Below, piece by piece: positions 16,808 through 43,516 of a stretch of 64,000 nucleotides of DNA. Source of the stretch: an uncultured Acidobacteriaceae bacterium (lineage in GTDB: Bacteria > Acidobacteriota > Terriglobia > Terriglobales > Acidobacteriaceae); NCBI GenBank assembly GCA_963716385.1, contig OY970305.1, forward strand, positions 2,187,614 through 2,251,613, in the 5' to 3' direction. The position numbers were made by a program, and so were the translations under genes. How positions within the stretch are numbered: position 1 is the stretch's first letter; the number at the start of each line of letters is the position of its first letter. The notes under the pieces were generated by a model. It saw only the letters and a list, made by a program, of their open reading frames with translations. It ran no database searches and was not told the DNA's origin.

Positions 16808-16892
16808 TGGTGCGGAGGAGGGGACTTGAACCCCTATGCCTTGCGGCGCTAGCACCTCAAGCTAGTGCGTCTGCCAATTTCGCCACCTCCGC
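16808..16892 (-). tRNA. tRNA-Leu (GAG)
   Basis: GCGGAGG/CCTCCGC acceptor stem plus encoded CCA; anticodon arm CTAGC-TTGAGGT-GCTAG; long variable arm; GTTCAAG T-loop; 85 nt. Confidence 0.96.
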
Positions 16893-33019: not shown

Positions 33020-33096
33020 TGGTGCGCCCGGAGAGATTCGAACTCCCGACCTACTGATTCGTAGTCAGTCGCTCTATCCAGCTGAGCTACGGGCGC
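33020..33096 (-). tRNA. tRNA-Arg (ACG)
   Basis: GCGCCCG/CGGGCGC acceptor stem plus CCA; anticodon arm ACTGA-CTACGAA-TCAGT; GTTCGAAT T-loop; 77 nt. Confidence 0.97.
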
Positions 33097-37784: not shown

Positions 37785-38660
37785 TCAAACGCTCCCTGCG
37801 TACCCCATGCCCGCCAGGAGGCCGCGCATGAAGGCAAAGCTTTTCGTGACGCCGGGCATCGGATCGTCTGCCTGAATCTCATACTCGAGATCGACAAACC
37901 CTTTGTACCTGGCCGCGAGAAGAGCTTCAAAGATTGCGCGCACAGGCATCTTGCCGTCACCTACGGCCACCTGGCTCTCCTTGTCATGGAAGTCAGTCAG
38001 GTCCTTCATGTGGACGTTGAACAGGCGCGGCCCTGCGTCGTGAATCGCCTGCACCACGCCGGTTCCCGCGCGCGCCGTGTGCCCGACATCGATGCAGTAG
38101 CCCATGCGCGGGTCCATGTACCTGACCGCCTTCAACACATCCAGCGGGGAGGGCCACACCTTGTCTTCCGGTCCGTGGTTGTGAATGGCAATCCGAATGT
38201 CGTACTCCTTCACGAACCTTTCAAGGCGGGGAAGAGTTTCGGGCGCTGGATCGCCCGCGACGATGACGGGAATGCCGGCCCGCTTGCAATACTCGAACTT
38301 GCCGCGAATGTCCGCATCGTTGTCCTCTCGAAAATAAATGGCTCCGGCTGCGTGAAGCTTGATGCCGGCCGCGGCATAATCCGTCAGCGCCCCGGCCTCC
38401 TCCCGCGGGTCCATGGGGAGATGATCCTTGATATCCTTCACATTCAAGTCAGTCACATCGAGTTGTTTCATGAAGTGAATCAGCTGGGCACGGCTGAAGT
38501 TACGAAACGTATAACTGGCCAGTCCCAAATGCACCGGGGACGGCTTTCCGTCTGCCGGAGATGCCTGAGCGAATGTAGGAAGCGCGCTCGAAGCAGCGGA
38601 TGCGGCCGCAAGCAGCGTGCCGCACCGAACAAAGTTGCGCCGTGAAAGAGTTTGTTTCAT
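37785..38660 (-). CDS. Tat-signal sugar phosphate isomerase/epimerase (xylose isomerase-like TIM barrel)
   Basis: SRRNFV twin-Arg; IAIHNHG, DVGH, VHMKD, LEYE metal-site residues. Confidence 0.8.
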   Translation of the reverse strand: MKQTLSRRNFVRCGTLLAAASAASSALPTFAQASPADGKPSPVHLGLASYTFRNFSRAQLIHFMKQLDVTDLNVKDIKDHLPMDPREEAGALTDYAAAGIKLHAAGAIYFREDNDADIRGKFEYCKRAGIPVIVAGDPAPETLPRLERFVKEYDIRIAIHNHGPEDKVWPSPLDVLKAVRYMDPRMGYCIDVGHTARAGTGVVQAIHDAGPRLFNVHMKDLTDFHDKESQVAVGDGKMPVRAIFEALLAARYKGFVDLEYEIQADDPMPGVTKSFAFMRGLLAGMGYAGSV

Positions 38661-38747
38661 AAGTCGGAGGCTCCTCGCGTGCTCCAGATAAGAGTTATCC
38701 ATGCATAACATCATTTGACCGGCTGCCGCGGATGAGTTTGCTGACTC

Positions 38748-40067
38748 TTATAGCTTCGGAGCCCAGCCCGGCTCGTAGGCGCGCCCCCGCAGCTTCATCG
38801 CCGCGGGATCGTTCTTCACCTTGCCGGTTGCGGAGTCGAGTTCGAGCGTCCGGTTGACTTCCCAAGCGACGTTGGATAGTTGCAGCATGGTGACGGCGAC
38901 ATTGCCGATGGAAACCGGCGCATTGAGCCTTTCTCCTTTGCGAATTCCGGCGATGAAGTTGGCAAAGTGCGCGTCCGTCATGGAGTCGCGGCCGGTGAGA
39001 TCGGAAGACGAGGTTTCAGTGCCTGTCTTGAACTCGCTCGCCTTGTTTCCTTGCAGATCGTAGATCTCATAACCGTCGCGATCGACGAGTACGGTGCCGG
39101 TGGTTCCCATGATGGTTGATCCGCGGTCACGGCCGTAAAACTTCATTCCCTGGCAGCATTTGCCCTCCCACGAAATCATCTTGTCGTCGTAGTTGAAGCT
39201 GGTCACAAGGTTGTCATAAAACTGCCAGTCGTCCTTGAACTGGTATCTTCCTCCCGAGGACGCAATGCTGTTTGGAAAGTCGACGCCGAGCGCCCAGCGG
39301 CAGACATCCACCTCGTGCGTGCCGTTGTTCAGAGTCTCGCCGGTGCCCCATATCTTGAACCAGTGCCAGTTATACGGTTGCACATTATCTTTGTAAGGCG
39401 TGCGCGGCGCCGGTCCCTGCCACAGATCCCAGTCGAGCTGCGGCGGCACGGGCGCTTCCTTGCCGATGCCGATCGATTTTCTTGTGTTGCTGTACCAGGC
39501 TTTGGCGTAGTAGGCGCGGCCGATCAGGCCATTGTGAATTCTGTCGACGATCTCAATGGTGTGCGGCGACGACCGCTGCTGCGTGCCCATCTGCACCAGC
39601 TTGCCGTACTTCTTTTGGGCTTGCACGAGCAGCGCTCCCTCGGCGGGATTGTGGCTGCATGGCTTTTCCACGTAGACGTGCTTGCCCGCCTGCAGAGCGA
39701 GGATGGCCATGGGCGCGTGCCAGTGATCGGGAGTGGCGATGGTGACGGCATCCACGTCCTTGTCGTGAAGAATCTGCCGGAAGTCCCGCGCGGCGGCGGG
39801 AGCATCATCCAATTCTCGGCGCACATCCTCCGCGAACGTTTTCAGAGTGTTGCTGTCTACATCGCACACGTGCGTGATCCTGGCGCTTTCCCGGTTGGCC
39901 TTGAGCGCGGAAAGGTGGGCATAGGCTCGCGAATGAAGGCCAATGACGGCAAAGTTGAGCCGGTCATTGGAGCCGAGAATCTGCGCATAACTCTTCGCGC
40001 TCGATCCAATGGCCAGGCCTGCCGCGCTCACCGCGAAGGTGTCAAGGAATTCACGTCGAGTCACCAT
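38748..40067 (-). CDS. Tat-signal Gfo/Idh/MocA oxidoreductase
   Basis: TRREFL twin-Arg; ATPDHWH, KHVYVEKP, QMGTQQRS, DWDLWQGPAP. Confidence 0.9.
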   Translation of the reverse strand: MVTRREFLDTFAVSAAGLAIGSSAKSYAQILGSNDRLNFAVIGLHSRAYAHLSALKANRESARITHVCDVDSNTLKTFAEDVRRELDDAPAAARDFRQILHDKDVDAVTIATPDHWHAPMAILALQAGKHVYVEKPCSHNPAEGALLVQAQKKYGKLVQMGTQQRSSPHTIEIVDRIHNGLIGRAYYAKAWYSNTRKSIGIGKEAPVPPQLDWDLWQGPAPRTPYKDNVQPYNWHWFKIWGTGETLNNGTHEVDVCRWALGVDFPNSIASSGGRYQFKDDWQFYDNLVTSFNYDDKMISWEGKCCQGMKFYGRDRGSTIMGTTGTVLVDRDGYEIYDLQGNKASEFKTGTETSSSDLTGRDSMTDAHFANFIAGIRKGERLNAPVSIGNVAVTMLQLSNVAWEVNRTLELDSATGKVKNDPAAMKLRGRAYEPGWAPKL

Positions 40068-40232
40068 GTTTTGCCTCCTCCATTGATCTGCGCGGTTCGC
40101 CGTGGATGGGTCTGAAACGGTCCAGCGGTCTTGTGCGCCATCAAATGTCTGCTGCCTGTTTCTTATTTCACAGCTATCTTATGCCCGCACAGCGAATGCG
40201 CGGCAGTGGCTTCAGGCTGAAATGCGCTTTGC

Positions 40233-40261
40233 TTGACGCGCGACGCCGCCCGGGTTAGGGT
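40233..40261 (+). promoter_or_regulatory. Sigma70-like promoter TTGACG-17-TAGGGT
   Basis: TTGACG at 40233-40238 and TAGGGT at 40256-40261, immediately upstream of the small ORF unit. Confidence 0.6.
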
Positions 40262-40294
40262 ATCGGTACACGGGAAAGGAGGTTGATCCAGCGA

Positions 40295-40345
40295 ATGCAG
40301 ATTGAATGTTGCAGTTGTTTCTTACGTGAGGTGACTGAGGCCTGA
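40295..40345 (+). CDS. Putative 16-aa small protein MQIECCSCFLREVTEA
   Basis: Preceded by GAAAGGAGGTTGATCCAGC (40274-40292) and bounded by a promoter and a terminator. Too short for the ORF track. Confidence 0.55.
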   Translation: MQIECCSCFLREVTEA

Positions 40346-40449
40346 GGCCCTTGCGCCCCAGCCCCAGATAAGTCCCGGCGGAAGTTCGCCGCCCACGGCT
40401 CTGGCACTCGCGGAAGCGCGAAGGCCCCAGTCCAATCCCAACAGATCAC

Positions 40450-40491
40450 CGACAACGGCCTGGGAACTGATCCCCAGGCCGTTGTCGTTTT
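40450..40491 (+). terminator. Strong intrinsic terminator
   Basis: CGACAACGGCCTGGG-AACTGATC-CCCAGGCCGTTGTCG, 15-bp perfect stem followed by TTTT. Confidence 0.85.
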
Positions 40492-40552
40492 GTGGGCCAG
40501 GGTGTGAGGGAAGGCTCAAGCCGGCAGGCCTGCTGCGTTAAACTGACAGCAA

Positions 40553-41712: not shown

Positions 41713-41830
41713 AGGCTGCCCAGAAGGCGTTTTACCGCGACTTTCAGGGCAGCGAGGGTGTCCAATGAGTGTTGGTCTCCACTGGGCGCGGAGTATGAAC
41801 GGGGAGATGCGGAAAGAGATTGGGGGCGCC

Positions 41831-43516
41831 ATGAAAAGCTTGCGGAAGGTTTGGTTTCGATCAGGAATCAGCGCATGGGGGCTGGCGCTGTTGGCGGCGG
41901 GAGCCGTGGCGCTGGGACCTTGCCTGGTGGCCCAGGACGGCGGGCCGGCCGCACGTGCGGTGCGGCTGAGCAGCGTGGATGGGCAGGTGCAACTCTCGCA
42001 GGGCAATACGGTGCTTGCCGCGCAGGCTCTGGCCAATACGCCGCTCTTTGGAGGGACCCGCATTGCGACCGCCGACGACGGCCGGGCCGAGATCCAGTTT
42101 GAAGACGGCAGCGTGGCGCGCATTTCGCCCAACAGCTCTCTCACGCTCAGCGTGCTGCGGCAACAGGGAGATGGGACCGACACAGAGATGGTGATGGATA
42201 GCGGCCTGGGCTACTTTGAGCTCCAGGGCGAAACGCCATCAGACCACATCCAGGTCCGGTTCGGCGACAGCGTGGTCACGGCCAGCGGCTTTACGGTCCT
42301 GCGCATCAACCTTGACAACCCTCCAGGAGAACTTGCCGTGTTTTCTGGCAACGCTCACCTTGAGGGTGGCAACATGCAGCCGCTTGACCTGCACGGCGGC
42401 GAAAGCGCGAGAGTGAGCGGCGCCAACGGCGGCGAATTCGTTGTGGCTGAGGCGATTGAGCCGAACTCCTGGGATGCGTGGAACGCGGATCGCGACCAGG
42501 CGCTGACGGCTCAGGAAGCGGATCGCACCGCGGCGACGGCAAGCGCTCCGAACAGCAACAATCCTGCCTGGAGCGACTTGGACGGCAATGGTAACTGGTA
42601 CAACGTGCCGGGACAGGGCTATGTCTGGTCCCCTTATGAGGCTGGAGGCGCAGGCTGGGATCCCTATGGCTGCGGAAGCTGGGTCTGGACGCCGCGCTTT
42701 GGGTATGTCTGGGTATCGTGCTATTCATGGGGTTTCATGCCCTACCAGATGGGCATGTGGAGTTACTACGACGGCTTTGGTTGGGGATGGGCGCCAGGCC
42801 TGGGCCAGCCCTGGTGGGGCGGCGGAGGCTGGGCCTACAACATCGGCAGGACTCCGTTCCAATATCAGCCTCCGCACCGGCCGCGGGGAGGGCCGGTAAA
42901 GCCTGGAGGCGGAAGGCCGACTTTCGCAGGGGGCGGCCATCAGCCGTATCCGGTGGTGACCGTCAATCGCCTGCGTGACAGAGTTTCGGGAGGACCGGTG
43001 CGCCCCAGGAATGCGCCGCTGGTGGTTTCCGGCAACCCGGTGCAGCCGCTCAGGCCTGTTGCGCCACGGCAGCGGTATGAAGGTGGGTCGTCAGGGGGCG
43101 TGAACCGGCCGCAGCCTGCTGCGCCGGGGGGCGGGGGCCGGTACGTCTATACCCCCCGCCAGGACACAGGGGGCGGAGCCCGTCCAGGCGAAGGGGTTGC
43201 ACCCAGGCCCTCCGGGGGCCCTGCGCGTCCAGCCGCGCCGCCGGAAAACTATAGCCCTCGTCCAGCTGCGCCTTCGGGCGGATACGCTCCTCGTCCTTCC
43301 GCGCCGTCTGGCGGATACAGCCCTCGCCCGTCCGCGCCAAGCCACGCGCCTTCTGGTGGCGGAGCGCCGGCCAGTCATCCCTCCGGCGGTGGTGGCGGCT
43401 CGCACCCGAGCGGTGGCGGTGGTGGTTCGCACCCGAGCGGCGGTGGCGGCGGGGGTGGCGGGTCTCACCCGAGCGGCGGCGGTGGCTCACACCCCAGCAG
43501 TGGGCCGCACCGCTAG
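41831..43516 (+). CDS. FecR-domain/DUF6600-like exported protein with Pro/Gly/Ser/His-rich tail
   Basis: RAVRLSSVDGQV, GRAEIQFEDGSVAR, Trp/Gly-rich GSWVWTPRFGYVWVS..WGFMPY..G.W segment, low-complexity C-terminus. Confidence 0.75.
   Translation: MKSLRKVWFRSGISAWGLALLAAGAVALGPCLVAQDGGPAARAVRLSSVDGQVQLSQGNTVLAAQALANTPLFGGTRIATADDGRAEIQFEDGSVARISPNSSLTLSVLRQQGDGTDTEMVMDSGLGYFELQGETPSDHIQVRFGDSVVTASGFTVLRINLDNPPGELAVFSGNAHLEGGNMQPLDLHGGESARVSGANGGEFVVAEAIEPNSWDAWNADRDQALTAQEADRTAATASAPNSNNPAWSDLDGNGNWYNVPGQGYVWSPYEAGGAGWDPYGCGSWVWTPRFGYVWVSCYSWGFMPYQMGMWSYYDGFGWGWAPGLGQPWWGGGGWAYNIGRTPFQYQPPHRPRGGPVKPGGGRPTFAGGGHQPYPVVTVNRLRDRVSGGPVRPRNAPLVVSGNPVQPLRPVAPRQRYEGGSSGGVNRPQPAAPGGGGRYVYTPRQDTGGGARPGEGVAPRPSGGPARPAAPPENYSPRPAAPSGGYAPRPSAPSGGYSPRPSAPSHAPSGGGAPASHPSGGGGGSHPSGGGGGSHPSGGGGGGGGSHPSGGGGSHPSSGPHR
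43233..43513 (+). repeat. Coding tandem repeats (Y[AS]PRP[AS]AP x3; SHPSGGGG x5)
   Basis: Read from the translation of the 41831-43516 CDS. Confidence 0.75.

Follow-up and report, generated by a model that had tools for sequence, protein, structure and literature searches.

A 64,000-nucleotide (nt) stretch of the genome of an uncultured Acidobacteriaceae bacterium (assembly GCA_963716385.1, contig OY970305.1, positions 2,187,614 to 2,251,613), referred to here in its whole length as the window, contains at 40233-40491 of its plus strand what its sequence indicates is a stand-alone gene for an RNA of ~224 nt, which combines the properties of a folded RNA with those of a tiny message. Close to the 5' end of this RNA lies an extended complement of the 3' tail of 16S ribosomal RNA (rRNA), which carries the anti-Shine-Dalgarno sequence, followed by a short open reading frame (sORF), a structured GC-rich stretch and an intrinsic terminator. 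Comparison with related loci establishes the autonomy of the gene, its complementarity to 16S rRNA, the conservation of its reading frame and the covariation of its helices. A sequence-only reading that preceded this analysis had described a promoter, an anti-16S site, a 16-codon open reading frame (ORF) and a terminator at this locus, and all four were found in their places when the sequence was re-read. The features of the gene are listed below in order along the RNA, with helices named P0 to P4.

40233-40261, plus strand: predicted sigma-70-type promoter, with -35 box TTGACG (40233-38), 17-nt spacer and -10 box TAGGGT (40256-61).
40268, plus strand: inferred transcription start, the A of ACACGGG.
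40269-40272 (RNA nt 2-5), plus strand: CACG, 5' strand of P0, predicted to pair with CGUG at 40325-28 in a 4-bp helix.
40273-40292, plus strand: extended anti-16S site, comprising GGAAAGGAGG (40273-82), the unpaired U40283 and UGAUCCAGC (40284-92).
40295-40345, plus strand: sORF of 16 codons, with ATG at 40295-40297, the 15 codons QIECCSCFLREVTEA and the stop TGA at 40343-45; predicted peptide MQIECCSCFLREVTEA.
40325-40342, plus strand: invariant central strand CGUG-A-GGU-GACUGAGGCC, comprising the 3' strand of P0 (40325-28), a Shine-Dalgarno (SD)-like GAGGUGA (40328-34) and the 5' strand of P1 (40333-42).
40343-40361, plus strand: region of P2, the stop-codon hairpin, which is weak in this species (stop UGA).
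40364-40404, plus strand: P3, a stem of variable length with outer pairing CCAG/CUGG and tip GGCG-GAAGUU-CGCC.
40408-40421, plus strand: P4, the hairpin UCGCG-GAAG-CGCGA, conserved across the genus.
40423-40432, plus strand: GGCCCCAGUC, 3' strand of P1, predicted to pair with 40333-42 and so to close a four-way junction.
40433-40450, plus strand: conserved linker, CAAUCCCAACAG plus AUCACC, nearly invariant in the family.
40450-40491, plus strand: predicted intrinsic terminator, with a 15-bp stem (40450-40487) containing 11 G-C pairs, an 8-nt loop and UUUU.

A scan of the locus for consensus promoters made no call, TAGGGT matching TATAAT at only 3/6 positions. In the copies from the genus, TTGAC of the -35 box is invariant and a TAnnnT is kept in 20/20, the distance between these two elements is fixed among relatives, and, of the 83 copies matched by regular expression, 77 have a -10 box that ends 6 nt upstream of the first conserved base. 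Because conservation begins exactly at 40268 and the spacing from the -10 box fits, transcription most plausibly starts at this position, in which case the RNA would open with ACACGGGAAAGGAGGUUGAUCCAGC. When 40200-40552 was used as a BLAST query, 22 of the 24 genomes from the genus gave matches to positions 40267-40490 with 70-88% identity, whilst the element was absent from all 16 genomes of a sister family; the conserved block opens at the inferred transcription start and closes at the terminator, the stem of which covaries freely across relatives.

Altogether, 152 distinct copies were collected, nearly all of them from Acidobacteriaceae, and the counts given below refer to this set unless another is named. 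In pattern searches, the full element was found in about one quarter to one third of the sampled genomes of the same family, and the strict pattern was absent from all 367 genomes taken from 97 further families within this phylum. Carriers recorded in a one-genome-per-species scan include Terracidiphilus, Granulicella, Terriglobus, Occallatibacter savannae, an Acidobacterium sp. and Ca. Angelobacter, together with many metagenome-assembled genomes (MAGs) of Acidobacteriaceae; the assemblies of two cultured carriers, Occallatibacter savannae AB23 and Terriglobus sp. ADX1, contain it. Three copies (L071, L125 and L135) lie on contigs of MAGs labelled Ktedonobacteraceae, Verrucomicrobiia and Eremiobacteraceae; the proteins flanking them are 55-78% identical to those of this genome, and the contigs are probably mis-binned acidobacterial sequences rather than signs of spread to other phyla. 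A match in Myxococcota was dismissed as chance, and a search of a plasmid collection returned no match.

The genome has a single 16S gene, ending in CGGCTGGATCACCTCCTTT followed by CT, and it is the RNA form of this end, CGGCUGGAUCACCUCCUUU followed by CU, that was used for pairing with the leader. The docking site, whose core was read as AAAGGAGGT-T-GATCCAGC at 40275-40292, is predicted to pair with this tail over 10 nt (GGAAAGGAGG, the first pair being G-U) and then over a further 9 nt (UGAUCCAGC), with G40273-G40282 opposite CCUCCUUUCU, U40284-C40292 opposite GCUGGAUCA and U40283 left out. The complementarity that the sequence-only reading had proposed from the usual bacterial 16S end therefore holds for this organism's own 16S tail. 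When the 4.18-Mb genome was scanned on both strands for the half-sites with 0-2 nt between them, and each site was scored out of 18, the only 18/18 matches were this locus and the antisense of the rRNA gene; no site scored 16 or 17, and 15 sites reached 15/18. The anti-16S match is real and far beyond chance.

In all 152 copies, which were collected with patterns that demanded the extra base, the complement is split into 10 + 9 nt. Within the 26-nt leader, variation is confined to this base (U 59, A 56, G 19, C 2), except that in 15 further copies the U opposite A1534 is also replaced, and that in some lineages the complement ends at GAUCCA. The features of the docking site that remain constant are ten pairs at the 16S terminus, an interruption opposite A1534 and 6-9 additional pairs. 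The spacing from GATCC to ATG is also largely fixed, being 5 nt in 124/152 copies, and at this locus the complement ends 2 nt before the AUG. The 16S tail is invariant in the ~30 family genomes in which it is assembled, leaving no variation in the rRNA with which the site could covary; on the comparative evidence, the anti-16S site is under strong selection.

The reading frame is conserved along with the leader, as the earlier reading would predict. The distance from the AUG to an invariant GUGAGGUG takes seven values between 25 and 43 nt, and it is 1 mod 3 in 151/152 copies. No copy has an in-frame stop within this stretch (0/152), compared with 131 and 138 copies in the other two frames. In 151 copies the sORF is 14-20 codons long, falling into seven length classes, and in one it is cut to 12 codons by a premature stop. 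Among the 78 copies of the 16-codon class, the third base of codon 4 drifts (GAT 52, GAC 16, GAA 8) whilst Asp or Glu is retained, and Ser6 is encoded by either TCG or TCC. The peptides are 14-20 residues long and have the consensus M-[KQS]-x-(S)-D-[CSG]-x-S-[CS]-...-[RSC]-E-V-[TA]-E-A. As judged from these patterns of substitution, the sORF is genuinely read by ribosomes.

The end of the sORF is also the centre of the predicted RNA fold. Its last six codons make up the 18-nt central strand, in which GTGAGGTG is invariant in 93/93 aligned copies and of which the NGUGAGGUG motif is common to Ms_IGR-5 and other metagenomic families (see below). In P0, nt 5 is paired with the first base of codon 11; most of the 152 copies have G-C here, 15 have U-A and 2 have A-U, the exceptions being one clear mismatch (L132) and one ambiguous divergent copy (L057); in the alignment A1 the corresponding counts are GC 86, UA 6 and other 1. 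These base swaps turn the Arg of codon 11 into Ser or Cys. P1 is formed by GACUGAGGCC and GGCCUUAGUC, ~80 nt downstream, and contains an A-U to G-C replacement that accompanies a Thr-to-Ala codon change in 28 copies, a Glu-to-Gly change that is matched likewise, and a closing C-G pair that becomes U-A. The stop-codon hairpin P2 takes the form UAGRGC-loop-GCYCUA in relatives, with UAG/CUA to UAA/UUA covariation (pairs 116-132, GC 70 and AU 8; pairs 117-131, GC 52 and AU 22). In minimum-free-energy folds of 93 representatives, the pairing of P3 is kept while its length and sequence vary, and P1 encloses P2, P3 and P4 to give a four-way junction in most per-sequence folds. Two of the small hairpins described in the sequence-only reading belong to this fold, GGCG-GAAGTT-CGCC being the conserved tip of P3 and TCGCG-GAAG-CGCGA the conserved P4, but the third, GGCC-TGA-GGCC, is not conserved and competes with the covariation-supported P1. 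Sequestration of the SD by the downstream AUCACC was also considered and rejected, the two decisive positions being poorly conserved.

RNAalifold did not recover the junction from a 93-sequence MAFFT alignment, in which the variable stems are misaligned, and per-sequence folds and anchor-based counts were used instead. The named pairs of P0, P1 and P2 were compared on the 93-sequence alignment with partners slid by 1-3 columns and with 500 shuffles. In total, 90.4% of the cells are paired, against 24-44% for the slid partners; 54 cells are doubly changed, against 18.8 in the shuffles; and the covariation score of 0.140 (0.099 shuffled) was reached by 0/500 shuffles. The residues of the "peptide" that are most conserved are those whose codons serve as RNA pairing partners and, because these invariant C-terminal codons covary with non-coding partners, the constraint on REVTEA points to the RNA level rather than the peptide level.

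When the whole window, a 621-nt region and an 89-nt region were compared with Rfam, no model reached its gathering threshold at the locus, and at E<=10 only noise was seen there (scr5239 at 15 bits, IRES_Bip). The model of Ms_IGR-5 (RF02471, gathering threshold 45 bits) gave no match at E<=10 on the 621-nt region, the 89-nt sub-window or the whole genome; as a positive control, the metagenomic sequence L214 scored 55.9 bits and is a bona fide Ms_IGR-5. The CC2171 model (RF01867, threshold 75 bits) gave no match at the locus, and its best score in the genome was at most 16.7 bits. A weak CC2171 match (14.5 bits) was seen in L185, at 1501-1668, on the reverse complement of the 16S 3' end of this same genome. 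Because the model matches the antisense of a 16S end in this way, sub-threshold CC2171 matches in genome annotation may be antisense rRNA ends.

A literature search found no paper describing the acidobacterial RNA. The sequence-only reading had presented it as an undescribed element, a view that must be revised, since the same design has been published for alphaproteobacteria (rreB/rreR, PMC5711450; Rfam CC2171) and the order of its motifs is that of Ms_IGR-5. As neither Rfam model scores on the locus, the acidobacterial RNA is, on sequence grounds, an unannotated and divergent variant within a class that is known but unexplained.

The rre RNAs are the only class considered here for which experiments exist, covering 30S binding, weak translation and start-codon-dependent decay. 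In Bradyrhizobiaceae, rreB is a 165-nt RNA with a perfect 17-nt complement of the 16S tail that runs into its GUG start, and with a 14-aa sORF (Hahn et al. 2017, RNA Biol 14:1353, PMC5711450); rreR is its counterpart in Rhodobacterales, and the RreB and RreR peptides are each conserved within their own clades (PMC5711450). The rreB RNA co-sediments with 30S subunits, is weakly translated owing to the extension and is stabilised when its start codon is replaced (PMC5711450). By published BLAST search, rre analogues are found only in Alphaproteobacteria (PMC5711450). In common with these RNAs, the acidobacterial one is a short stand-alone transcript (160-225 nt across both groups) with its own promoter and terminator, predicted in the present case, and has a 16S-tail complement of at least 16-17 nt near its 5' end; behind this come an sORF that is conserved within the clade (14-25 codons), a structured 3' part and the terminator. 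The CC2171 consensus, which begins cAAcaAucGAAAGGAGGUGAUCCAGUG, is of the same type. The complement is uninterrupted into the GUG in rre, whereas here it is split by one base and ends short of the AUG, so that in place of the uninterrupted complement of at least 16 nt that characterises rre there are 10 + 9 nt in every copy collected. Furthermore, the peptide and the 3' domain share no sequence similarity with those of rre.

The likeness to Ms_IGR-5, which is a discrete transcription unit in Streptomyces (PMC8780764, PMC8079986), extends to sequence. As judged by eye rather than by statistics, six modules occur in the same order: a 5' ACAC, the extended SD, the sORF, NGUGAGGUG, a linker of the form AAUYCC..CAG.UCACC and the terminator. 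The Rfam consensus runs ACACAaGGAAGGAgGugGuCc ... AuGUGAGGUGgCugC ... AAUuCCccGcAGuCACC plus terminator, beside which this locus reads ACACGGGAAAGGAGGuUGAUCC ... CGUGAGGUGACUG ... CAAUCCCAACAGAUCACC plus terminator. In the Ms_IGR-5 member L214, the leader is ACACAAGAAAAGGAGGUGAUCCAGC, the sORF starts with AUG and ends ...CEV..., and CACA:UGUG is found at the position of P0. The two differ in host phylum (Actinobacteria there, Acidobacteriota here), in the extra base that splits the complement at this locus, and in architecture, with one long hairpin in Ms_IGR-5 and a four-way junction here; the Rfam model annotates neither the sORF nor P0. On this evidence, the acidobacterial RNA is probably a distant homologue of Ms_IGR-5.

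Relatives without the extra base were sought in metagenomes with a pattern in which an uninterrupted anti-16S site is followed by an AUG and, after 20-50 nt, by GTGAGGTG. This gave 31 matches (L188-L218), of which ~26 are seemingly genuine. These make up at least five families, with sORFs of 14-18 codons that end x-E-V-x-x-x (e.g. MSSGSSSMQTAREVADG, MVESTMVTCEVVGP and MSDCGESRSGEVVDS), each family having its own terminator-like 3' end and several pairing GGUG with a downstream CACC. Rfam recognises one of the 31, L214, as Ms_IGR-5. Another, L193/L215, is a close relative of the acidobacterial RNA that lacks the extra base in its docking site; it encodes the peptide MSSDSHSSSHSEVLEA and has a P0 variant (ACACU...AGUGAGGUG), a P1 (CUUGAGGCU/GCCUCAGGCC) and a linker (CAAUUUCCACAAGCUACC), with its AUG 8 nt after GAUCC.

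Comparison may also be made with leader-peptide attenuators (trpL) and dual-function small RNAs (SgrS/SgrT, SR1/SR1P, RNAIII/hld), which likewise have a tiny ORF inside a structured RNA and set translation against folding. Unlike these, the acidobacterial RNA has no conserved downstream gene and no identified trans target, and none of them pairs with the whole 16S tail.

The reading that we favour, with a probability of roughly 0.6, is that the RNA docks on 30S subunits and that translation of the sORF unzips its core. In this model, the central strand would join three partners, namely the 5' end of the RNA (P0), the 3' strand of P1 and possibly the ACC before the terminator, whilst a loop of ~52 nt would present the AUG with the first ten codons, as well as a bipartite site (10 nt, an unpaired base, then 6-9 nt) for the last ~19 nt of 16S rRNA. 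Free 30S subunits would dock on this loop through their anti-Shine-Dalgarno tails, with the 5' half of the site serving as the subunit tether. The 3' half, 2 nt from the AUG, would have to melt before the start codon could enter the P site, and initiation would therefore be throttled. A translating ribosome would then unzip P0, P1 and P2, leaving the RNA opened and exposed to decay, and such unzipping would explain the start-codon-dependent decay of rreB. It is because of the rreB experiments of Hahn et al. that 30S binding, throttling and translation-coupled unfolding are proposed for the acidobacterial RNA.

A number of observations weigh against this model. Folding predictions leave the docking site partly paired within the RNA itself (mean unpaired probability ~0.4); pairing of its CCAGC requires the base of 16S helix 45 to be opened; and the complement is shortened in those lineages in which it ends at GAUCCA. 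P0 has only 4 bp, with which it closes a loop of ~52 nt, and its covariation consists of one pair with roughly three independent events. Two alternative pairings were also encountered: P1b, between the P2 loop and the segment just 5' of the P1 3' strand (on average -12.2 kcal/mol for cognate against -8.5 kcal/mol for non-cognate combinations), and P5, between GGUGACUG and CAG-N-UCACC before the terminator, in which 94.2% of cells pair with little covariation. P1b and P5 compete with P2 and P1, so that the fold described here is provisional. Finally, overexpression of rreB produced no growth phenotype (PMC5711450).

RNAs that pair with essentially the whole anti-Shine-Dalgarno tail are now recorded from Alphaproteobacteria (rre/CC2171), Actinobacteria (Ms_IGR-5), Acidobacteriaceae and several metagenomic families. 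Neither Rfam nor genome annotation includes the acidobacterial family. This branch contributes depth to the comparison, in the form of 152 copies, a conserved split site, an sORF that appears to be read and an ORF end buried in core helices. Combined, these clues yield the concrete and testable model of docking, throttled initiation and translation-coupled unfolding set out above. If such RNAs do modulate or protect free 30S subunits, the ribosome biology of slow-growing soil bacteria would include a layer that is widespread yet overlooked.

A bolder proposal, which we regard as doubtful, is that the RNA is not mainly a message but a cross-phylum "cap" for the 30S subunit. The central strand would splint the 5' end, the 3' end and the junction together, the loop would capture a free 16S tail, and P0 would abut the mature 16S 3' terminus so that the duplexes meet end-on. 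The captured subunits would be idle or immature, and the RNA would protect or check the 16S 3' end or bar initiation, with translation of the sORF bringing about both release and self-destruction. Under this proposal, Ms_IGR-5, the acidobacterial RNA and several of the metagenomic families would be one ancient family.

Among the rival explanations, the one that survives best, though we consider it unlikely, is that of a chiefly ordinary small messenger RNA (mRNA) that acts through its 14-20-aa peptide (M-K-x-S-D-x-x-S-C...), with the long SD setting only the level of expression and the 3' structure stabilising the transcript. Such a role would fit the conserved frame and the synonymous drift at Asp4 and Ser6, the presence of at least one Cys in 135/152 peptides, the S/C pair at peptide positions 7-8, and the clade-wise conservation that the RreB and RreR peptides likewise display. 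Against this, the REVTEA end varies in step with its partners in the RNA (R/S/C follows nt 5, and both T/A and E/G follow the 3' strand of P1), and codons 11-15 (CGU GAG GUG ACU GAG) have undergone zero synonymous change. Moreover, the invariance of the 26-nt leader far exceeds what an SD needs, an 18-bp SD duplex would be expected to hinder translation rather than aid it, and no conserved neighbour gene at the genus loci hints at a partner or a processing enzyme. The more specific suggestion of the sequence-only reading, a CCxC metal/redox micro-protein, was rejected: CCxC occurs in just 3/152 copies, and the invariant codons covary with non-coding partners.

A second rival, which we hold to be improbable, is a trans-acting base-pairing small RNA whose seed is the conserved single-stranded linker CAAUCCCAACAG, with the sORF and SD being secondary. 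The linker is nearly invariant, C/A-rich and predicted to be unpaired just 5' of the terminator, and it resembles the AAUuCCccGcAGuCACC of the Ms_IGR-5 consensus. However, its sole long complement in the genome, 15 nt at G000:C1:194101-194116 (GATCTGTTGGGATTG), outside the window, lies inside a minus-strand ORF whose mRNA carries the sense of the linker. About 0.05 such matches would be expected by chance; the match is probably a coincidence. Nor does the linker behave as a second rRNA contact, its duplex energy against the rRNA operon being -20.4 compared with a shuffled mean of -21.0, and the seed explanation leaves both the anti-16S site and the conservation of the frame unexplained.

It is highly improbable that the RNA is a leader-peptide attenuator of ruvC, the gene that lies downstream and whose identity, together with that of the GFO/IDH/MocA oxidoreductase upstream, was confirmed by Pfam. 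Such an arrangement is suggested by the presence, 61 nt upstream of ruvC and in its orientation, of an sORF, alternative pairings and a terminator. Lack of synteny contradicts it: of 20 loci from the genus, only a few have ruvC as their downstream neighbour, and the others have nrdR or an unrelated gene, sometimes in convergent orientation. Because the flanks are non-syntenic, the RNA is best regarded as a stand-alone gene rather than a ruvC leader, in agreement with the sequence-only reading. In addition, no antiterminator that competes with the terminator stem was found. A chance match or decayed rRNA gene fragment, suggested by the sequence being the reverse complement of the 16S end, has a negligible probability, being refuted by 152 distinct copies with an invariant site, promoter, ORF and terminator and by the lack of any site scoring 16-17/18 elsewhere in the genome.

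Several further features of the window were recorded. Upstream of the RNA, on the minus strand at 37785-40067, are two divergently oriented genes with twin-arginine translocation (Tat) signals, encoding a xylose-isomerase-like TIM-barrel protein and the GFO/IDH/MocA oxidoreductase; in several other members of the genus, the RNA likewise has similar Tat-signal proteins (~310-330 aa) encoded upstream of it. The plus-strand ORF at 41765-43516 encodes 583 aa and ends, over its C-terminal third, in a low-complexity tail that is extremely rich in Gly, Pro and Ser and contains repeats of GGGGSHPSGGGG and PRPSAPSGGY. Two transfer RNA genes, at 16811-16892 and 33023-33096 on the minus strand, are the sole matches to Rfam in the window at gathering score. 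As regards the suggestion of the sequence-only reading that many neighbouring genes appear to lack an SD, a crude count on a noisy set of ORFs gave SD-like 4-mers before 19% of first start codons in long ORFs, compared with 9% for a control window.

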